The notes under the pieces were generated by a model. It did no database searches. It saw only the letters and a program-made list of their open reading frames with translations, and was not told the origin of the DNA. A stretch of 64,000 bases of DNA from an archaeon GW2011_AR20 (GTDB lineage: Archaea; Nanobdellota; Nanobdellia; SCGC-AAA011-G17; GW2011-AR20): assembly GCA_000830315.1 (NCBI GenBank), contig CP010426.1, positions 60,670 through 124,669 on the forward strand, written 5' to 3'. Below are positions 684 to 63,238 of this stretch, piece by piece; position 1 is the first letter of the stretch; every line of letters starts with the position of its first letter. The position numbers were made by a program, and so were the translations under genes.

Positions 684-1904
684 TTAATATCTTTTTATAT
701 AAATGTAAAATATTATAAATGATATTATTTCTGAAATCAAGGTAGTAATGCTAGCGCCGATATAACTATATCTTGGTATAAAATAAAAATTTAATAGAAT
801 ATTCAGTCCAGCACCAAACAAAATAACATTTCTAACAATCCTTTGTTTATTTATTGAATTTAAAAAAGTTTTAATAATTATATTCAGGGTTATAAAAATG
901 TAAAATATGCTTAATATTCTTAAGGCATTAGTTGCCTGTAAAAATTGTTCGCCATATACTATTAGAATTATTTTATCTGCGAAGATTAATACAAATAAGC
1001 TTATTAAAATGCTTATTAAAAACGCGTATTTTAAAGATTTTTTAAGCAATTTATTTAGTGGTTTTTTTGATCTTTTATGATATAAGGACATTATTGGAAA
1101 TATGGTTTGTGCCAATATCAGGGGTATAAAAGTAGAATGCACTATTAGTCTAGTTACTGCATTATATAACCCTACTGCTGCATTATCTTTTAATAGAAGT
1201 GCTAACATTATTATGTCTATTTTAAAATAAACTAAAGAAAAAATTGTATTTAAACCAAAAGGGAGTGCATTTTTAAATAAATTTTTGGCAAAATTTAGGC
1301 TAAACTTATGCTTTAATCTGAAAAAATATTTCTTGAGTAAGCCATAGTTAATTAAAGCCATAAAAATATTTACGAAAATTGTTGCTGTCGCTAATCCCAC
1401 GATTCCATAACCTAAGGTTATGGAGCCCATATAAAGAACAAATAATAAAATTGCATTAAAAATTTTAGAAAATGCGTTAAACTCCATTTTTTGAAATGCA
1501 TTAAAAATGGAATTAAATGAGCCAGAAATTGAGGAAAATATGAAAGATATTCCAAGTAAATATATCGTTAATGTTGTATCGTAAGGGTTTTTTATTATAT
1601 TTATAAAAATTATTATAAAAAATAATGTCAATATTGATAAGATAACCTTTAGAATTAATAAATTGCTCAAATAAACTTGTGCTCTGTTTTTAAATTTAGA
1701 TATTTCCCTTATTGAGTATGTATTTAATCCTAAATCGGTAAATATCATAAAAAATGATGTAAATGCCAAAGCAAAACCCCATTTACCATAATCGACTACG
1801 CCCAATTTTCTAGCTATGAAAATTGTTATAAGAAAAAATATTAATTTTTCTATTATTGAAGCCGTTAATAATACAAAGTTGTTCTTTAATATCTTATTTT
1901 TCAT
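684..1904 (-). CDS. Polysaccharide biosynthesis / Wzx-like flippase family polytopic membrane protein
   Basis: 406 aa, about 12 hydrophobic segments, organisation typical of MOP-superfamily oligosaccharide flippases; overlaps next gene by 4 nt (operon). Confidence 0.5.
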   Translation of the reverse strand: MKNKILKNNFVLLTASIIEKLIFFLITIFIARKLGVVDYGKWGFALAFTSFFMIFTDLGLNTYSIREISKFKNRAQVYLSNLLILKVILSILTLFFIIIFINIIKNPYDTTLTIYLLGISFIFSSISGSFNSIFNAFQKMEFNAFSKIFNAILLFVLYMGSITLGYGIVGLATATIFVNIFMALINYGLLKKYFFRLKHKFSLNFAKNLFKNALPFGLNTIFSLVYFKIDIIMLALLLKDNAAVGLYNAVTRLIVHSTFIPLILAQTIFPIMSLYHKRSKKPLNKLLKKSLKYAFLISILISLFVLIFADKIILIVYGEQFLQATNALRILSIFYIFITLNIIIKTFLNSINKQRIVRNVILFGAGLNILLNFYFIPRYSYIGASITTLISEIISFIIFYIYIKRY

Positions 1905-3388
1905 TTTGCTTCATAAACATAAACCTTCTTATTATAAACCTCTTTTAAAAAACCACAATTGATCTTATCATAATCATAAACTAAATTAATGTCATTTTTT
2001 TCTAATATTTCTTTCTTGGTTTCACAGTTGGAGTTATAAAACTTATTAACTAATTCTTCATTCCCGCCCCGTAGATTAGATAAAGGCATTGCTACAACAT
2101 AATTCTGGCTTATTGGGTAAACGCCGAAAGCTGTTAATAAATTAGTCATCATTAAATTGTTTTCACCATAATTTTCCCTTACCCATTTCAATGCAAGGTA
2201 ATCATCTTCATTAATAAAATGTAGCGGTAAAAAGCGTTTATCGTCTATTTTATAATAATTATTAAATTGATTTATAAAAATTAATGCAAAAATTAAAATT
2301 ATAATAAATAAAGCTAAACTTTTATCATATTTTTTAATAAAATCGTAAACATTTTCTAGCAGATAATACAGACCAATTCCGGATAATGGCGCTAGGCCGA
2401 TTAATAAATAAAAAAACGCCCTTTGGTAAGGCAAAAACAAAGTAAAATTCAAAATAGAATACATAATTACCAAAACCAGGCAGATTAATGGCCATATCAA
2501 TAGTATTCTATTCAACCTTTTCCTGTAAACATAAATTATTCCGATTACAGCAAATAAAAATGCGATTAAGCCATACATCATAAATATTGAATAATTAAAT
2601 TCAAATGCCCCGGTCCATCCATACCTAAATATAAAAATATTAAATAAATGTTTTAAATTATTCCTGAATAAGAATAAGGCAATAAATATTGGGGCCAATA
2701 AGAGCAGGAAATAAGTACGATTTATTTTTTTTTCTAAAAAAAGATAGATAAATAAGATTAAGGTTATTAATATGGTTGATAGGGGATAAACAAAAATTGA
2801 GGTTATATAAAATAACATGCTTAGGTAATTCAATCTTTTATTTTTATGCAAAAAGCAATAAAAAAACAGATACATTAAAAATATGGAAAAAGTTAATGGA
2901 ACCAAGAACCATATTCCCATCAAATTAACGTTATTCTTGATGCTCAAGAAAAACAAGCTTGACAGGAAAGAAATGTAAAAATTATTGGTTAATAATAAAA
3001 TCAGCAAAATCAATCCAAGAAGATAAATAATGGTAAATATTGCAGGCAAATATTGGTAATTTAAAATTGGGTCTGTGTTTGTTAGGGTAAAAAATTGTGC
3101 TAGAAAACTATGAAATCCAGATTCTAGATTAAGCTTTGGCCTCGAATCCTTAATATAAGGATTTAATTCGGGAATTTTTTGGTTTTTCATTAAATAAACA
3201 GTTTGGGCCAAGTGTGTCCATTCATCCCCGTGCAGAGGATATTGATAGTAATTGTTTTCTTTTTGGACAATAAAATCCGGTTCATGCGGGTCTTGGTAAT
3301 AATAACCATAATCTAGATGAACTTTATAAACTAAAAAAAATACGAATGGTATTAAGATAATTAAGAGTAATTTATGATAATTTTTCAT
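1901..3388 (-). CDS. Polytopic membrane protein, possible GT-C-type glycosyltransferase
   Basis: 495 aa, many TM helices, acidic HGDEW motif in first extracytoplasmic loop, translationally coupled to the flippase-like gene. Confidence 0.3.
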   Translation of the reverse strand: MKNYHKLLLIILIPFVFFLVYKVHLDYGYYYQDPHEPDFIVQKENNYYQYPLHGDEWTHLAQTVYLMKNQKIPELNPYIKDSRPKLNLESGFHSFLAQFFTLTNTDPILNYQYLPAIFTIIYLLGLILLILLLTNNFYISFLSSLFFLSIKNNVNLMGIWFLVPLTFSIFLMYLFFYCFLHKNKRLNYLSMLFYITSIFVYPLSTILITLILFIYLFLEKKINRTYFLLLLAPIFIALFLFRNNLKHLFNIFIFRYGWTGAFEFNYSIFMMYGLIAFLFAVIGIIYVYRKRLNRILLIWPLICLVLVIMYSILNFTLFLPYQRAFFYLLIGLAPLSGIGLYYLLENVYDFIKKYDKSLALFIIILIFALIFINQFNNYYKIDDKRFLPLHFINEDDYLALKWVRENYGENNLMMTNLLTAFGVYPISQNYVVAMPLSNLRGGNEELVNKFYNSNCETKKEILEKNDINLVYDYDKINCGFLKEVYNKKVYVYEAK

Positions 3389-3475: not shown

Positions 3476-5833
3476 ATGAAAAAATGGCTTTTAATATTTA
3501 TTGTTATGCTAGTTTCTCTTTATAATGTGGGTGCTGCGTTGCCAGATGTAAGTTTAAGTGCGAGTGCTTACGGAGACTACGTTGTCCTAAGATGGTCATA
3601 TGAAATAATAGAGCAAAGCCCTTATGGAAGTTATGGTGTTGAGCAAGGTTATTATGAAGAAGGTGGCGCTTCAACAGCCCAAAGACCGACTATAAATTAT
3701 TTCATTGCGAATCCAACATCTATATCAAACCCAAACCAATCCGTTTATCTTTCATGGTCTGTTGATCAAGCTGATTCGTGTACAGGCTCCGGTCCCGGAT
3801 TCACAGGTTCAAAAGCAGTAGGAGATGAAGTACAAAGCGTTACTCCAACCTCAACAACAAATTATACTTTAACATGTACGAATTCGGCTGGAAGTATTTC
3901 TAGGTCCATTAATATTATTGTTTCTTATGGGAGTTATGGCGGAAGTTATGGCACAACCCAAGCAATAAGAAAAATAACAAGCAATGCAGTTTTAGATAAT
4001 ATAAAAGATCTTTTCTCAAGATTAATAGATGCTATAAAAAATCTGCTTGGACTGCAGACCGCTGGTTCTGCAATAAACTACGATTTCGAGATTTATAGAA
4101 ACTCTCAATTAATCGCATCAGGTGATAAATATGAGTTCAATTGTGAAAGCAATCAATGTAGTTATAGGGATAATCGCTTAAGAAACGAAAACTACAATTA
4201 TTATGTTAAAATTAAAAACGTTGAAGGGACCGAATCAAGAAATTCTAATTCAATTAATGTAATAATAAATTTCGATAGTGGGGGCGAGACAGCTCCGAGT
4301 CCAGGTATCCCCCCTCCAAGAATAACGATAGCGAGTGTTGATGAGGATAACGATGAACCTTATGAAACAACAAACTTTATGCCGAGAATTAGTTTAAATA
4401 CAGATGAGTCTGCTAATTGTAAAATTTCTCTCGCTGACATTTCATATACAAACATGGTTCATTCATGCCCAAACAATGAGCTGAAAACAAGCCATATTTG
4501 CAATTCTCCTGAAAACTTAAGTTTGGGAGAGAAGATTCTTTATGTAGCATGCCAAGACGAATCTGGAAATTCAAACAATGAAACAAATAACAAAGAAGTT
4601 AGATTTACAATCATCAATAGAACTTCAGTAGCATCAACGAGTTTAGAGAATATAGAAGTTTATCCAAGTGCGTTTTTGATGGAAATTGGCTCTTCAAGAT
4701 TATTAAAGTTCAATGACCCGCAAGTTACTTCAGCTTATGGGACTAATGAAAGTTTAAATTATGTGTGGTCAAAAGAAGGGGTAAGCTGTAATGTATTAAA
4801 TGGAATGGTTTCTGCATTGAAAGAAGGGAATTGTAAAGTCATAATAAATAACCGCGATAGGAGTGCAAATGGGATATCTCATGTAAAAGTTATAAACAGA
4901 TCCATTTACAGTCAAATGATAGTGTTCTCCTACGATAAAAATGAATTAACCTTTAATGATAACACAACCATTCAGCTGAACTTATCAAAAAATATCAGCG
5001 GCGGGATAATAATTAAATTTTATAATACAAGTCCTGTCGGAACACCAAATAATCTAAAACTCTTGAACAAATACTTGCTGATAGAGGCAGATGATTTGAT
5101 AACAAATAACCTTAATAATGTGGTCCTATCAATGACCTATAATAAAGTCTTCTTAAACAACAATAACATAAACGAGGATTTATTAAAAACTTATTATTAT
5201 AGTGACCTAAATGATGAGTGGATAGGATATTCTAGTTCTATAGACAAGAATTCAATGCGGGTTTCTATAGGATTAAATCACTTGTCATTATTCGGCTTGT
5301 TTGGGCAAACCGAATCATCATCACAGGGAGGGGAAGGAGGGAATGCGGGGGGTGCAGGAGGAGAAGGAAGATGCATAGAACAGTGGTCATGTGGATCATG
5401 GGGTCCTTGTATAAACAACCAGCAAAGAAGAACATGCGCTGATTTAAATAGCTGCAACAACAGGAACCCAAGAATAGCAAAGCCGGTGGGATACACTTCA
5501 TGTTCCCAAGGAGATGACTTTCTACAAAATCAGCCGAGTGAAGAATCTGATGTCAGGAACATCTTTGGCGAGACTCCCCAACCATCGGAAGAAAAAAATA
5601 ATTTAATTAATTATCTAATAATATCTCTACTACTGGCAGGAGCAATAGTTTTTGTATTTAGAAAGAGAATATTCAGGAAAAAAACCGGAATTGCTGATAA
5701 TAACTTAGATGCCATAATTGGGTTAGTAAAAAGAATAAGAGCAAGAGGGTATAGTGATGATGAAATTAAGCAAAAATTGTATGACGAGGGCTTTAATCAG
5801 AAGCAGGTAGAAAAAATATTCAGGAAATTATGA
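3476..5833 (+). CDS. Large secreted cell-surface protein with N-terminal signal peptide, Gly-rich linker, Cys-rich module and C-terminal TM anchor with basic tail
   Basis: 785 aa; MKKWLLIFIVMLVSLYNVGAA signal; GGEGGNAGGAGGEG linker; CIEQWSCGSWGPC...C module; C-terminal LINYLIISLLLAGAIVFVFRKR. Confidence 0.5.
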   Translation: MKKWLLIFIVMLVSLYNVGAALPDVSLSASAYGDYVVLRWSYEIIEQSPYGSYGVEQGYYEEGGASTAQRPTINYFIANPTSISNPNQSVYLSWSVDQADSCTGSGPGFTGSKAVGDEVQSVTPTSTTNYTLTCTNSAGSISRSINIIVSYGSYGGSYGTTQAIRKITSNAVLDNIKDLFSRLIDAIKNLLGLQTAGSAINYDFEIYRNSQLIASGDKYEFNCESNQCSYRDNRLRNENYNYYVKIKNVEGTESRNSNSINVIINFDSGGETAPSPGIPPPRITIASVDEDNDEPYETTNFMPRISLNTDESANCKISLADISYTNMVHSCPNNELKTSHICNSPENLSLGEKILYVACQDESGNSNNETNNKEVRFTIINRTSVASTSLENIEVYPSAFLMEIGSSRLLKFNDPQVTSAYGTNESLNYVWSKEGVSCNVLNGMVSALKEGNCKVIINNRDRSANGISHVKVINRSIYSQMIVFSYDKNELTFNDNTTIQLNLSKNISGGIIIKFYNTSPVGTPNNLKLLNKYLLIEADDLITNNLNNVVLSMTYNKVFLNNNNINEDLLKTYYYSDLNDEWIGYSSSIDKNSMRVSIGLNHLSLFGLFGQTESSSQGGEGGNAGGAGGEGRCIEQWSCGSWGPCINNQQRRTCADLNSCNNRNPRIAKPVGYTSCSQGDDFLQNQPSEESDVRNIFGETPQPSEEKNNLINYLIISLLLAGAIVFVFRKRIFRKKTGIADNNLDAIIGLVKRIRARGYSDDEIKQKLYDEGFNQKQVEKIFRKL

Positions 5834-35444: not shown

Positions 35445-38400
35445 TTAACCACAGGCACCTTCTATAAAAGTGCATTTCGGGCTTGTGCATTTCCAGCAGT
35501 TGACAGATCCTCCAAATCTAATTAAAAGGGAGCTGCAATTGGGACAAACTCTACCAGAGATTCCGCTTTCTTGATTGCTTTCACTAGAAGATGGGATAGA
35601 ATGTTCATTGCCATTACCATTTTTATTATTCATTCCTAGCAAAAATTTTACTTGATCTTCATTCACATTTCCATTACCATTTTTAGATTTCAAAAAATCA
35701 CGAACGTAGTCTTCTTTTAATTCAAATTCTTCATTATTTAACATTCGATAAACCTGCTCAAATTTCTTATGCCTTTTTAATTTATTAATTCTTAATTCAG
35801 ACTTAACTGGAGGCATATCTGCAAGCTCTTTCATCCCCAAATATTCAATACCATAAATCTTGCTCAATAAACTTCTTAATGAGCTACATTGGTTTATGTA
35901 AGGATATCCAGACACAGAGCCATAGATTTCTGCAGATTTTACGCCAAGTCCTTTTTCAACGAATTTTTTTAAATTCATGCCGTGCTGAAGCTGGAATGAA
36001 ACGTCAATGCCTTGTTGTTTTAAATTTTCCTCTAAAAATGTTCCTGCATCGGCCATGTGCAAAAATACCTCGCTTGGCATCAAGGTGTCTTTATACTCTG
36101 TTGTTATAATTATCAGGCTTTTGCCACCAACTTTAACTTTTATTTTATATGAATCGCCTAATTCCGGGGGTTCTTTTGATTGTCCCCAAACTTTTTTCTC
36201 TAAACTATCTGTCAAAAATTCTTCGGTTTCTTTGACATTTAATGGCTGAGATAATTTACTTCCATCTCTATAAGCAGCAACTGCTTTTAATCCAAGTTTC
36301 CATGCCTTGAGATAGAAATTATAAAAGTCTTCTCTAGTAGCTTCATGAGGCATGTTAAATGTTTTTGATATTGCTCCTGATATAAACGGTTGGGAAGCTG
36401 CCATAATCATAAGATGATCGTCTATGCTCAAAGATTTCTTGGCTTTCTTTGGTTTAAGCGCCGTAAGAAATACAGGTAAATGTTCTTCTTTAATATCTGG
36501 TGAACCTTCAATAGTATTATTTTCTGCTATATACTCTAATATTAATTCAATTTTTTTGTCAGAATATCCTAGCATTCTTAAACCAAGTTCAGGTCCTTTC
36601 AAACCCTTTAGTTCAATTCTACCTCCCCCAGAAAGTTTTTTATCTGCGACAAATATGGCATAAGGTTCTCCGCCCAAGGTTTCGTTTTCCATCCACAACC
36701 CTATTGTACCTACCGGGGCGATTACAGTAGCTTGTGCATTTCTATAACCATACTCTTTCCCTAAACCTATTGTTTCATTCCATGTATCAAGGGCAACATC
36801 AAATAAAGAGCTTAATAAGTTTTGGTGGGGTATTTTATTTTTGTTAACCTTAAATAGGTGGTCTCTATGCATGTTCATCACTTTTAACATTGGTTCTTTA
36901 TTATCGTTAAACCTCTCAAATGGTCCCATTTCCTTAGCAATTAAAGAAGATTGCCTATAAACTCTGCCGGTTAATATCGCTGATAAAACAGACGTAAGCG
37001 CCTGTGCTTCTTCACTACCATAAGACAAACCGTAAGACATTATTAATGCTCCAAGATTAGAATAACCTGTGCCAATTGTTCTATGTTTATGAGTCATTTC
37101 GGCTATATTTTTTGTTGGATAGCTTGAATAATCTACAAAAATTTCCTGGGCCGTTGATACAATATCTATGGTATGTGTATAACCCAAAACATCAAAAGAC
37201 CCGTCAGCTTTTCTGAATTTCAATAAATTAAGTGATGCCAAATTACAAGCTGTATCATCTAAGTATAAATATTCTGAACATGGATTTGAACTGTTTTGGT
37301 TACCATCGTTTGGCGTGGTATGCCAAAGGTTTATTGTCGTATCATATTGAAGCCCGGGATCCCCAGAATACCATGACGCATCAGAAATTTGCATTAAGAT
37401 TTCTCGTGCTTTAACTGTTTTTGCAATTTCGCCAGAGGTTATATATCTTAAATCCCAGGTGCTATCTTTTTCAACAGCGTGCATATAATCATCTGGAACC
37501 CTAATTGAGATATTTTCATTTTGAAAAGATAAAATGTCCTGATAAACTTCTCCTTCCCAGTCTGTATTAAAACCCATAACATCTAATGCACGTGCTATTT
37601 CCTCTTGTCTTTTTTTAACATTAATAACTTCCTCGACATCCGGATGACTTACATCAAAGGTGGCCATTTTCGCAGCCCTTCTTGTTTTTCCGCCTGATTT
37701 TATTAATCCAGCCCATACATCATAGCCTTTCATCCAAGAAACTGCTCCAGAAGATTTTCCACCCCCTTTTATTGGTTCGTCTCTAGCACGACGTGTGGAA
37801 AAATTAGAGCCTGTTCCAGAACCATCTTCAAAAATGCTTGTTTCTGTAACTTGATGTCCAACTATTGAGTCCAAATCATCTCCGGTTTTTAAGATAAAAC
37901 AAGCAGAGCATTGCGGCCTTTCATAACTATCGTTCACTGGAATAGCTTCTCCTTTTTTGTCATCCCATGCGAATTTTTTTCCTTCTTTGCCTTTAAAACC
38001 ATAAATATGATTTAAACCAACATTAAACCATACAGGAGAATTAAATGCTGCTCTTTGATCTGTTAAAATAAAAACAAGTTCATCATAAAAAGTCTGGTAA
38101 TCTTCTTGCGATGCAAAATATCCTCTTTTCAGTCCTTCATCTGCAACGGTTTTTGCTACCCTATAAATCACTTGCTTTGCACTTGTCTCTTTGCCAATTT
38201 TAGGAACATCGGCAGATTTAGCATATTTATCAGCCAGAACCATTTCCGCAGGAGTTCCCCAATGTTTTGGCAATTCAAGATACTTGTCAACGACAGGTTT
38301 GTCTGGATCTGCGCGATTCTCTGTTATAATATGCCTGGTTTCCCATTGAAAATAATCAAAGGGGTCCTTTCCTGGTTCTGTATAAAGACGATTAAATTTT

Positions 38401-38483
38401 AAACCCTTATTACCATTTCCAGAATATTTTGTAATTTCTTCTAAATTCGAGACGGGTTCCTTTGTCGCGAGTCCTACAGCCAT
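35445..38483 (-). CDS. nrdJ: Ribonucleotide reductase, probable class II (adenosylcobalamin-dependent) with C-terminal zinc ribbon
   Basis: 1012 aa; active-site-like NPCSEY...LDDTACNLASLNL; C-terminal CPNCSS...CWKCTSPKC; no NrdB-like partner nearby; NrdR gene immediately upstream. Confidence 0.75.
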   Translation of the reverse strand: MAVGLATKEPVSNLEEITKYSGNGNKGLKFNRLYTEPGKDPFDYFQWETRHIITENRADPDKPVVDKYLELPKHWGTPAEMVLADKYAKSADVPKIGKETSAKQVIYRVAKTVADEGLKRGYFASQEDYQTFYDELVFILTDQRAAFNSPVWFNVGLNHIYGFKGKEGKKFAWDDKKGEAIPVNDSYERPQCSACFILKTGDDLDSIVGHQVTETSIFEDGSGTGSNFSTRRARDEPIKGGGKSSGAVSWMKGYDVWAGLIKSGGKTRRAAKMATFDVSHPDVEEVINVKKRQEEIARALDVMGFNTDWEGEVYQDILSFQNENISIRVPDDYMHAVEKDSTWDLRYITSGEIAKTVKAREILMQISDASWYSGDPGLQYDTTINLWHTTPNDGNQNSSNPCSEYLYLDDTACNLASLNLLKFRKADGSFDVLGYTHTIDIVSTAQEIFVDYSSYPTKNIAEMTHKHRTIGTGYSNLGALIMSYGLSYGSEEAQALTSVLSAILTGRVYRQSSLIAKEMGPFERFNDNKEPMLKVMNMHRDHLFKVNKNKIPHQNLLSSLFDVALDTWNETIGLGKEYGYRNAQATVIAPVGTIGLWMENETLGGEPYAIFVADKKLSGGGRIELKGLKGPELGLRMLGYSDKKIELILEYIAENNTIEGSPDIKEEHLPVFLTALKPKKAKKSLSIDDHLMIMAASQPFISGAISKTFNMPHEATREDFYNFYLKAWKLGLKAVAAYRDGSKLSQPLNVKETEEFLTDSLEKKVWGQSKEPPELGDSYKIKVKVGGKSLIIITTEYKDTLMPSEVFLHMADAGTFLEENLKQQGIDVSFQLQHGMNLKKFVEKGLGVKSAEIYGSVSGYPYINQCSSLRSLLSKIYGIEYLGMKELADMPPVKSELRINKLKRHKKFEQVYRMLNNEEFELKEDYVRDFLKSKNGNGNVNEDQVKFLLGMNNKNGNGNEHSIPSSSESNQESGISGRVCPNCSSLLIRFGGSVNCWKCTSPKCTFIEGACG

Positions 38484-38661
38484 TTTTATAAAACCTTCCC
38501 AGAATTAACATAAAAAATTGAGCGTTTTGTCAATATTAAAATCATGATATCACCTTTTTAGTTATCTCTTCCTTCCATTTAGTAAATCTAATTCTTCTCT
38601 TAGAAGCTTATATGCTTCCTGAAGCTCTTTGTAGGCTTCATTTAAGTTTTGTTTTTTCATT

Positions 38662-39117
38662 TTACCTCTTCTTTACCAGATCTTTAAGTTCTTTTTCAAA
38701 GTCTGTAACATCTGCAAAGCTCCTGTAAACAGAAGCAAATCTTATGTAGGCTATTTTGTCCAGTTTTTTTAATTTTGAGACTATTTTCTCCCCAATTACG
38801 CTGCTTGCAACCTCTTTTGACTTAAGCTTGCGCAATTCAGCCTCAACCTTGTTAACTATGTCGTCAACTTGCTCGCAACTTACTGGTCGTTTTTCGCATG
38901 CCTTAAGTATTCCCCGTTTTATTTTTTCAGGATCAAAACTTTCTCTTCTTCCATCTTTCTTGACTATAATCAATCCCAAATCCTCAACTCTTTCGTAAGT
39001 TGTAAAGCGTTTCTTGCACTTGAGGCATTCCCGCCTTCTCCTAGTTACATCAAAGTCTTCTGTTTCTCTCTTATCCACTACCTTGGTCTCTTCATAAAAA
39101 CAAAACGGGCATTTCAT
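38662..39117 (-). CDS. nrdR: NrdR-family transcriptional repressor (Zn ribbon + ATP-cone)
   Basis: 151 aa; MKCPFCFYEETKVVDKRETED...RRRRECLKCKKRFTTYERVE closely matches the NrdR N-terminus; ATP-cone region follows. Confidence 0.8.
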   Translation of the reverse strand: MKCPFCFYEETKVVDKRETEDFDVTRRRRECLKCKKRFTTYERVEDLGLIIVKKDGRRESFDPEKIKRGILKACEKRPVSCEQVDDIVNKVEAELRKLKSKEVASSVIGEKIVSKLKKLDKIAYIRFASVYRSFADVTDFEKELKDLVKKR

Positions 39118-39172
39118 ATGGAATTACAACCTTCTAATGAATACAACCTATTGTGTATCACTTATGCCATCA

Positions 39173-39188
39173 ACACAATATATAGCAC
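39173..39188 (+). promoter_or_regulatory. NrdR-box-like 16-mer (ACACAATATATAGCAC) upstream of nrdR, with partner inverted repeat TATTGTGT at 39149-39156
   Basis: 13 of 16 positions match my recalled NrdR-box consensus acaCwAtATaTwGtgt; lies 56-71 nt upstream of nrdR start. Confidence 0.25.
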
Positions 39189-39204
39189 TTTAAATTATAA
39201 GTAG

Positions 39205-39228
39205 TATTTAAATATTTCTGTGGTAAAA
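39205..39228 (+). repeat. 24-nt intergenic motif TATTTAAATATTTCTGTGGTAAAA (copy A)
   Basis: Near-identical copy at 50725-50748 (1 mismatch), with flanking similarity over about 35 nt. Confidence 0.6.
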
Positions 39229-39264
39229 ATGCTATTTTAGAAAAAATATTTGCGAAAATCAGTT

Positions 39265-63137: not shown

Positions 63138-63238
63138 GGGGATATGGTCTAGCTTGGAATCCTAACAAAAATTAGGGTGAGTAATTATGATGAGAGGTTT
63201 GGGACCTTTCGACCCCGGTTCAAATCCGGGTATCCCCA
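63138..63238 (+). tRNA. tRNA-Pro (anticodon TGG) with about 28-nt non-canonical intron in the D-arm
   Basis: Acceptor GGGGATA/TATCCCC + A; intact anticodon arm AGAGG-TTTGGGA-CCTTT (63193-63209); T-arm CCCGG-TTCAAAT-CCGGG; 48 nt between acceptor and anticodon stem versus about 19 expected, containing hairpin CCTAA-CAAAAA-TTAGG. Confidence 0.55.

Follow-up and report, generated by a model that had tools for sequence, protein, structure and literature searches.

A tandem NrdR operator, two conserved micro-ORFs and an apparently exchangeable reductase gene in the predicted nrdRJ-type operon of the archaeon GW2011_AR20

How might a repressor of bacterial type be fitted to an archaeal promoter to control ribonucleotide reductase (RNR)? 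This question is raised by a locus of the groundwater DPANN archaeon GW2011_AR20 in which nrdR, encoding the nucleotide-sensing repressor NrdR, precedes nrdJ, encoding a class II RNR. The locus lies within a 64,000-nt stretch of the genome (i.e. contig CP010426.1, positions 60,670 to 124,669), which is referred to below as the window and numbered from its first letter. A preliminary description, made from the sequence alone, had reported NrdR-box-like palindromes upstream of nrdR and a 32-aa open reading frame (ORF) between the two genes, and had considered NrdR to be chiefly bacterial. The latter view needs refinement as NrdR is not exotic in archaea: its occurrence in 'some archaea' has been reported, with a share of 22% of archaeal genomes (PMC9110341, PMC13584703); a 2026 survey of NrdR boxes was limited to bacterial genomes (PMC13584703). 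In the literature searched, no paper tied NrdR to DPANN archaea or reported small ORFs within nrdRJ operons. The NrdR system as such is known; the new elements are the micro-ORFs, with their proposed functions, and the modular exchange of RNR genes. The reading favoured here, with a probability of about 0.7, is that the locus is an nrdRJ-type RNR operon that is controlled by NrdR and transcribed from an archaeal promoter.

The identities of both proteins were borne out, as were the coordinates given in the preliminary description for nrdR, the 32-aa ORF and the 1012-aa RNR and the CxxC...CxxC...C...C pattern in the NrdJ tail. NrdR matches the TIGR00244 equivalog over model positions 1-147 of 147 with 194.5 bits (cutoff 124.65), and NrdJ exceeds the curated cutoffs of NF005122 (938 bits; cutoff 859) and TIGR02504 (495 bits; cutoff 400). 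The Zn-ribbon of NrdR (PF22811, 64 bits, residues 1-42) shows C3-x2-C6 and C31-x2-C34 in the translation, the ATP-cone is matched by PF03477 (83.6 bits), and the alignment with the solved NrdR structures of Escherichia coli and Streptomyces coelicolor covers the whole protein. Residues D15 and R17 are kept (i.e. K12-V-V-D15-K-R17, aligned with KVIDSR of E. coli); in S. coelicolor, Asp15 and Arg17 (S. coelicolor numbering) contact C4 and G13 of the NrdR box (PMC13584703). NrdJ carries the RNR barrel (PF02867, 368 bits) and the class II N-terminal domain (PF08471, 53.9 bits). Its tail reads CPNC-x13-CWKC-x4-C-x7-C in translation and aligns with the CPSC...C..C...C tail of the relative L081; the TSCPD model matches relatives, but not this NrdJ. 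Both genes are annotated in GenBank (NrdJ is AJF62269.1). The archaeal context was also confirmed, with a deoxyhypusine synthase and a three-domain ATP-dependent DNA ligase encoded in the window. The closest NrdRs derive from metagenome-assembled genomes (MAGs) of Woesearchaeota and Nanoarchaeota, and all relatives discussed below (i.e. the L-numbered loci) are metagenomic contigs.

The palindromes upstream of nrdR were examined against the known architecture of NrdR sites. Such a site consists of two 16-bp boxes that are 15-16 bp apart and overlap the start site (PMC13584703, PMC9110341), with a 26-27-bp linker as an alternative spacing. Positions C4, A6, A8, T9, T11 and G13 of the box are highly conserved, C4 and G13 being critical (PMC13584703, PMC9110341). 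The reported match of 13 out of 16 positions was reproduced, as ACACAATATATAGCAC on the forward strand (39173-39188) has three mismatches to the consensus ACACWATATATWGTGT. The sequence described as its inverted partner (i.e. TATTGTGT at 39149-39156) is present; it is not a separate inverted repeat, being the right half of a full second box, ATACAACCTATTGTGT (39141-39156), which also has three mismatches.

Single boxes with no more than three mismatches are not significant alone, with four observed in the window against 1.45 expected and at least four in 5 of 100 shuffles. Chance is likewise expected to produce pairs in a window of 32% G+C when only the six core positions are judged. The preliminary description had named a scan with a position weight matrix as a check; the score used here was a weighted full consensus. 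With a maximum of 44 per pair, the tandem boxes and their 16-bp linker score 37, which is the top value of the 64-kb window; the next unrelated pair scores 31, and the maximum over 300 windows simulated with a first-order Markov model was 34. No further box pair and no strong single box was detected between nrdR and nrdJ. A putative third box over the nrdR start codon was rejected, as it scores only 13 out of 22 and coding accounts for its conservation.

Conservation of the pair was assessed in fetched loci of NrdR homologues (6-12 kb). In many DPANN archaea and some bacteria, the best pair is found 52-81 nt before nrdR. A pair score of at least 33 was obtained for 29 of 39 non-identical archaeal nrdR upstream regions, whereas none of 1395 control windows from those archaeal loci reached 31. 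Both boxes of all 29 operators have C4 and G13, linkers measure 16 bp in 25 and 15 bp in four of them, and flank and linker sequences drift. That the boxes are chance palindromes of AT-rich DNA without regulatory function is therefore extremely improbable: single boxes and six-core pairs do arise by chance at this base composition, but the full-consensus pair outscores every simulated window, is placed exactly upstream of nrdR and is retained across archaeal loci with its critical bases and spacing. Judged by score, position and conservation, the palindromes are a genuine, canonical tandem NrdR operator.

The promoter elements around this operator are archaeal in type. In 16 aligned relatives, the TATA-like box shows no or hardly any variation; in the near clade, it has the conserved AAAT in front and is separated from box 1 by 16-17 nt (16 nt in the window); more distant DPANN loci have TATA-like elements 13-26 nt upstream of box 1, and box 1 itself begins 71 nt before the nrdR ATG. 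The usual archaeal spacing from TATA centre to start site is about 26 nt, which places the predicted transcription start at about 39182, a few bases inside box 1, so that the start site and about 45 bases at the beginning of the transcript would be covered by bound NrdR. Another conserved block, TTTTTCTAAAT (39236-39246, minus strand), precedes the TATA box by about 25 nt in each of the 16 aligned relatives and could serve as terminator for the gene upstream or as a promoter-distal element.

Downstream of the operator, the reading frames are tightly packed (Table 1). Box 2 is followed by a 23-nt leader containing GAAGGT and then by nrdR, the 32-aa ORF (hereafter small ORF 1, sORF1), a second micro-ORF (sORF2) and nrdJ. 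The gaps between successive frames are 1, 16 and 2 nt, each frame has its own Shine-Dalgarno-like site, and the 178-nt interval between nrdR and nrdJ is occupied by both micro-ORFs. These gaps and the lack of boxes in the interval provide indirect support for one NrdR-controlled operon, and co-transcription of the four frames is predicted from the gene packing.

Table 1. Features of the nrdR-nrdJ locus in window coordinates
Feature	Position	Strand	Description
nrdR-nrdJ locus		-	order: TATA-like box, box 1, linker, box 2, nrdR, sORF1, sORF2, nrdJ
TATA-like box	39205..39212	-	TTTAAATA, AAAT in front; predicted operon promoter
NrdR box 1	39173..39188	-	GTGCTATATATTGTGT in transcription direction; 6/6 core positions
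Linker between boxes	39157..39172	-	16 bp
NrdR box 2	39141..39156	-	ACACAATAGGTTGTAT; 5/6 core positions, G at position 9
nrdR	38662..39117	-	151 aa; Zn-ribbon and ATP-cone; PF22811, PF03477, TIGR00244
sORF1	38562..38660	-	MKKQNLNEAYKELQEAYKLLREELDLLNGRKR; 32 aa, helical; ATG 1 nt past nrdR stop, AGAGGT 5 nt upstream
Conserved block	38512..38556	-	aaGGTGATatnATGATTTTAnnnnnnACAAAAmGCTCAAtTTTTT
sORF2	38486..38545	-	MILILTKRSIFYVNSGKVL; 19 codons, leader-like; stop 2 nt before nrdJ ATG
nrdJ	35445..38483	-	1012 aa; adenosylcobalamin-dependent class II RNR, Cys-rich C-terminal tail
Approximate homology breakpoint with L081	38412		~24 codons into nrdJ

In the mechanism proposed, the TATA box (39212-39205) would direct transcription starting within or just before box 1 and would yield a single, tightly packed transcript of nrdR, sORF1, sORF2 and nrdJ. 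A rise of dATP relative to ATP would be sensed by the ATP-cone of NrdR, and an NrdR tetramer would bind both 16-bp boxes, whose centres are separated by 32 bp or three helical turns. By covering the start site and the early transcribed region, the bound repressor would block recruitment or escape of RNA polymerase and switch off the whole transcript. As one packed transcript would carry both genes, NrdR would control itself and the class II RNR. Both the repression by NrdR and its nucleotide dependence are predictions of this model.

A precedent for this arrangement is the nrdRJ operon of S. coelicolor, for which Grinberg et al. reportedly described the NrdR repressor in 2006. That operon has two boxes over the start site (PMC9110341, PMC13584703). 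The two systems share the order of nrdR and then class II nrdJ, the two 16-bp boxes upstream of nrdR with a 15-16-bp linker (15 bp in S. coelicolor, 16 bp here) and a start-site overlap (predicted here), which implies autoregulation, and a repressor with Zn-ribbon, ATP-cone, D15 and R17. They differ in that the present host belongs to the DPANN archaea, the operator is downstream of a TATA box and not in a sigma-70 promoter, and two conserved micro-ORFs lie between the genes. The best match among solved structures is E. coli NrdR (i.e. 9fvr, 9fzf, 9fxk and 9gex; 147 bits, residues 1-146; PMC12176259), which recognises the same box consensus family. In E. coli, by contrast, nrdR is located away from the RNR genes, three RNR operons are controlled and no small partner protein has been described.

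Comparison with related loci indicates that the RNR gene has been replaced in situ several times, whereas the regulator, operator and micro-ORFs have stayed. DNA of the window and of L081 is 90.6% identical over 40110-38412, beyond which there are only patchy matches of 65-73%. At the protein level, NrdR is 95% and sORF1 100% identical between these two loci while NrdJ is collinear with only 41% identity over its full length. In other relatives, homology stops at 38512 and restarts at the gene for deoxyhypusine synthase. Among loci whose NrdRs all share 75% identity or more with that of the window, six RNR lineages were distinguished (i.e. the window's own; L081/L082/L088/L097; L087; L108; L084/L086/L098/L102/L106; and L001), with inter-lineage identities of 24-45% and a different domain make-up in two of the six. 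Among 5.8 billion clusters, the window NrdJ has only two close relatives, and the next matches are bacterial with 43-46% identity. About 15 residues at the RNR N-terminus (MAVxxSKESSVSNLE-like) are common to the window (38412-38483), L081 (from 4999), L082 (from 4499) and L001 (from 926), despite RNR bodies that are only 25-41% identical; it thus seems that recombination took place within the 5' end of the RNR gene.

A phylogeny of NrdR and NrdJ had been suggested in the preliminary description as a check for horizontal transfer. Transfer is evident for nrdJ; a recent import of nrdR was not supported. In a neighbour-joining distance tree of the NrdRs of the fetched loci (~150 residues; sample biased towards relatives of the query), all DPANN sequences formed a group that was separated from the other bacteria in 84 of 100 bootstraps and had three Patescibacteria and a 'Gammaproteobacteria' MAG nested inside. 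This DPANN-wide group does not support a recent bacterial origin of nrdR. The sORF1-bearing clade was recovered in 65 of 100 bootstraps. nrdR thus appears to be a long-term resident of DPANN archaea, its ultimate origin being outside the reach of this tree. The nested bacterial NrdRs belong to Patescibacteria/Levyibacteriota loci L010, L012 and L059 and to L078, and both L010 and L012 have a box pair before nrdR and an RNR gene after it, which hints at exchange between DPANN archaea and the Candidate Phyla Radiation in common groundwater habitats.

The 32-aa ORF noted between nrdR and nrdJ turned out to be a real gene. Its length alone is unremarkable, as 8 kb of sequence contains 54 ORFs of 30 aa or more, and sORF1 is judged real because it is conserved and not because of its length. 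A scan of metagenome contigs with patterns derived from the peptide only gave 20 confirmed sORF1 loci; nrdR is directly upstream in 19, and the contig ends at this point in L093. sORF1 follows nrdR in every close relative examined, with its start from -17 to +14 nt relative to the nrdR stop and a size of 32-37 aa across loci. Across 18 distinct DNA versions, the minimum numbers of changes at codon positions 1, 2 and 3 were 28, 22 and 56, and the mean proportions of non-synonymous (pN) and synonymous (pS) differences were 0.19 and 0.80, respectively. The window and L081 differ by synonymous changes only (pS 0.29, pN 0.00). An alignment of eight sequences contains 13 invariant residues, and the hydrophobic residues L6, Y10, L13, Y17, L20, L24 and L27 read from it follow a 4-3 heptad spacing; stretches of the peptide include ELQEAYK and LLREELDLLNGR. 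AlphaFold2 predicted a single helix over residues 2-31 with a pLDDT (i.e. predicted local distance difference test score) of 90.

Database searches indicated a narrow distribution of sORF1. No Pfam or NCBIfam model matched, and a phmmer search of 1.84 billion representatives returned three small relatives and one repetitive 885-aa match that is probably compositional. Fusions to NrdR or RNR did not appear in that search, and an origin of sORF1 as a split-off or fused part of a larger protein was rejected. A hidden Markov model of sORF1 run on six-frame ORFs of 80 species-representative loci detected only L001, a 25-aa ORF after nrdR in L002 being not significant (E = 8). The exact sequence is missing from a collection of 15 billion proteins and is therefore unannotated in the GW2011_AR20 genome. 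On this comparative evidence, sORF1 is a real microprotein gene under purifying selection that is tied to nrdR and limited to one Woesearchaeota-like clade. The product is most likely an amphipathic helix acting as a small partner of NrdR (e.g. modulating its oligomeric state) or otherwise in the RNR circuit. Small accessory proteins are familiar from RNR operons (e.g. NrdH, NrdI and YfaE), and sORF1 resembles these in being a small gene inside an RNR operon that is conserved along with it. It differs in being far smaller, consisting of a single helix without a redox motif or a match to a family model, and following nrdR rather than a particular RNR class.

The preliminary description of the nrdR-nrdJ interval included sORF1 but missed a second conserved micro-ORF and the nucleotide block in which this begins. 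The 16-nt gap between the micro-ORFs contains AAAGGTGAT, and downstream of sORF1 the relatives share aaGGTGATatnATGATTTTA......ACAAAAmGCTCAAtTTTTT. This block holds a Shine-Dalgarno-like site (38549-38554), the start and first 11 codons of sORF2 and, at its end, a run of six T (38512-38517). In most versions, a GGTGAT site is 4-5 nt before a fixed sORF2 ATG. Of 16 versions, 15 have this ATG 22 nt ahead of GCTCAA; L087 has AAG in its place and an ATG at -25. The block motif occurs as a single copy in the window and in each related locus, and GCTCAATTTTT was rejected as a generic genome signal, since it is not enriched in the window. Third codon positions in the block (i.e. ATT, TTA, ACA, AAA, TCA, ATT and TTT) never vary, whereas first positions do, and the first-position substitutions change amino acids (R/S/G at codon 8; L/S/A/T at codon 3). 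Invariant third positions here, together with saturated synonymous sites in sORF1, indicate that it is the nucleotide sequence of the block that is constrained; the block is probably a cis-acting signal and may contain an internal promoter or a partial terminator.

Beyond the T run, sequence and length diverge, yet the sORF2 frame remains open for 7-15 more codons in all 15 versions, for which the combined chance is ~1e-8 if the versions are treated as independent. In 13 versions, the stop precedes the start of the RNR gene by 1-8 nt. In L084 and L086, a second unit of this kind, which shares the frame and also contains TCAATTTTTT, takes up the gap left between sORF2 and the RNR gene. In L084 (~5575-5699) and the equivalent part of L086, the leader unit (i.e. 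Shine-Dalgarno-like site, ATG, ~11 codons and TCAATTTTTT) is thus a tandem in-frame duplicate before a TSCPD-type RNR gene, giving three successive micro-ORFs between nrdR and that gene. The block is missing from L088, where sORF1 abuts the RNR gene. A frameshift at the T run into an overlapping 33-aa ORF (38410-38511) was rejected, as that frame closes after 9-12 nt in several relatives and the T run, as read in the sORF2 frame, is no canonical slippery heptamer. A known RNA element (e.g. a B12 riboswitch) was likewise rejected for the interval between nrdR and nrdJ. The interval had no Rfam match at gathering thresholds or at E <= 1 and its fold was not better than that of shuffled sequences (z = -1.17), and no conserved RNA structure was predicted for the 16 aligned versions of the block.

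sORF2 is most likely a translated leader, from which ribosomes would be passed to nrdJ by termination-reinitiation. Translated leaders and coupling are well known from the pyrBI and trp leaders and from termination-reinitiation in polycistronic transcripts. Leaders of the pyrBI and trp type have in common with sORF2 a short ORF with its own ribosome-binding site, a stop abutting the next start and a U-rich tract. The differences are the archaeal host, the absence of detectable terminator or antiterminator hairpins and the concentration of sORF2 conservation in the 5' half and T run; the resemblance is functional and no homology is claimed. A combined role for the micro-ORFs can be proposed only tentatively. 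sORF1 would be a clade-specific component of the NrdR circuit, of coiled-coil type, that binds NrdR or RNR to tune the oligomeric switch, sORF2 and the block would form an archaeal leader or attenuator for translational control of RNR, and the whole would be a portable module with exchangeable RNRs.

Several observations weigh against these readings. Co-transcription is a prediction from gene packing, and the window is part of an 829-kb genome in which a second RNR locus or more operators may lie elsewhere. The link between sORF1 and NrdR is one of synteny only. Box 2 deviates from the core at position 9 (G), and its central AG is also present in box 2 of E. coli nrdAB (PMC13584703). The end of the block (i.e. 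AATTTTTTAT) could serve as a weak TATA box of an internal nrdJ promoter, and nrdJ would then escape NrdR. In a more explicit form, NrdR would regulate only itself and sORF1 while nrdJ would be expressed mainly from a promoter in the block, with ACAAAAmGC resembling a transcription factor B recognition element and AATTTTTTAT as TATA box, largely independently of NrdR. Such a promoter would account for a block that is conserved by nucleotide and not by codon, forms the last conserved sequence ahead of the swapped RNR cassettes and precedes the RNR start codon by 30-100 nt, which would be workable for a promoter with a short leader. It is nevertheless unlikely, as the match to the TTTAAATA-type box of nrdR in the same genomes is poor, the distance from block to RNR start varies widely, and both the Shine-Dalgarno-like site and ATG at fixed offset and the frame kept open to the RNR start would be left unexplained. 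Moreover, nrdR, sORF1 and the RNR gene are still packed together in L088, which is without the block, and a dedicated RNR repressor that spares the adjacent RNR gene would be odd. Control of the whole operon by NrdR is therefore preferred.

Similar considerations apply to the micro-ORFs. As it is the nucleotide sequence of sORF2 that is constrained, the peptide may be irrelevant, and the region might be an untranslated, purely cis-acting RNA or DNA signal (e.g. a partial oligo-T terminator, an attenuator or a protein-binding site) with an incidental open frame. Tolerance of amino-acid-changing substitutions at first positions, next to invariant third positions, fits this alternative, as does the terminal T6 run, which has the form of archaeal intrinsic terminators; runs of T5-T6 are, however, common in this AT-rich DNA, also inside genes, and the run proves neither termination nor a promoter. 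A signal of this kind is doubtful as the full explanation, in view of a frame that stays open over 7-15 non-conserved codons in every version, a stop close to the RNR start, a strong GGTGAT at 4-5 nt from a fixed ATG in most versions and the same-frame duplication in L084 and L086, and neither an RNA structure nor an Rfam match was detected; a translated leader remains the preferred reading of sORF2. For sORF1, the alternative is a mere translational-coupling spacer or a clade-specific hitch-hiker without a role in RNR regulation. The narrow clade, with L001 alone among the 80 species-representative loci, is in keeping with this, and other DPANN nrdR-RNR operons (e.g. L003, L014 and L018) are without sORF1, so that NrdR would not require it. 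Purifying selection with saturated synonymous sites, 13 invariant residues and a heptad pattern argue otherwise and make a passive role improbable. The gene has also survived at least five RNR replacements, its frame is intact while its register relative to the nrdR stop moves, and it was never seen apart from nrdR. A part for sORF1 in the NrdR circuit is thus favoured.

Other features were observed in the window and its relatives. Directly upstream of the operon, a 189-aa ORF (39265-39834, minus strand) has no Pfam or NCBIfam match; its position is taken by a 189-aa gene in L081 and by a 192-195-aa AAA_28 protein in L084, L086 and L089. A 50-aa ORF (39886-40038, plus strand) contains two CxxC motifs (MKCEMC...CNSC), and its last base is the first of tRNA-Thr (40038-40111); genes of 50 aa at the equivalent position in L081, L082, L084, L087 and L089 suggest that it is probably a conserved small zinc-ribbon protein. 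Genes resembling LAGLIDADG homing endonucleases are found a few kb upstream of the nrdR operon in L082 (150-857), L087 (2573-3490) and L089 (1-375), and none was seen near the operon in the window. An 86-nt tRNA at 44632-44717 (plus strand) was detected by Rfam (61 bits) but not by ARAGORN and may be an intron-containing archaeal tRNA; a 64-nt tRNA-like match at 63175-63238 (plus strand) is at the Rfam gathering score (29.1 versus 29 bits) and has no ARAGORN match. Three long ORFs gave no Pfam match at E <= 0.001 (i.e. 3476-5833, plus strand, 785 aa; 53552-56440, minus strand, 962 aa; 1901-3388, minus strand, 495 aa).

The locus shows a bacterial operator grammar, in core bases and spacing, that is intact in DPANN archaea and placed just downstream of a TATA box. 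As NrdR has been studied almost only in bacteria, it offers a simple, testable case of a nucleotide-sensing repressor of bacterial type acting on archaeal transcription machinery. The two unannotated micro-ORFs are candidate extra layers of control on an essential enzyme in organisms with tiny genomes, and sORF1 is among the few microproteins whose coding status can be demonstrated from comparative data alone. Horizontal mobility of RNR genes is well known. Swapping of RNR genes behind a fixed module of regulator, operator and leader suggests that this mobility may be possible without rewiring of regulation.

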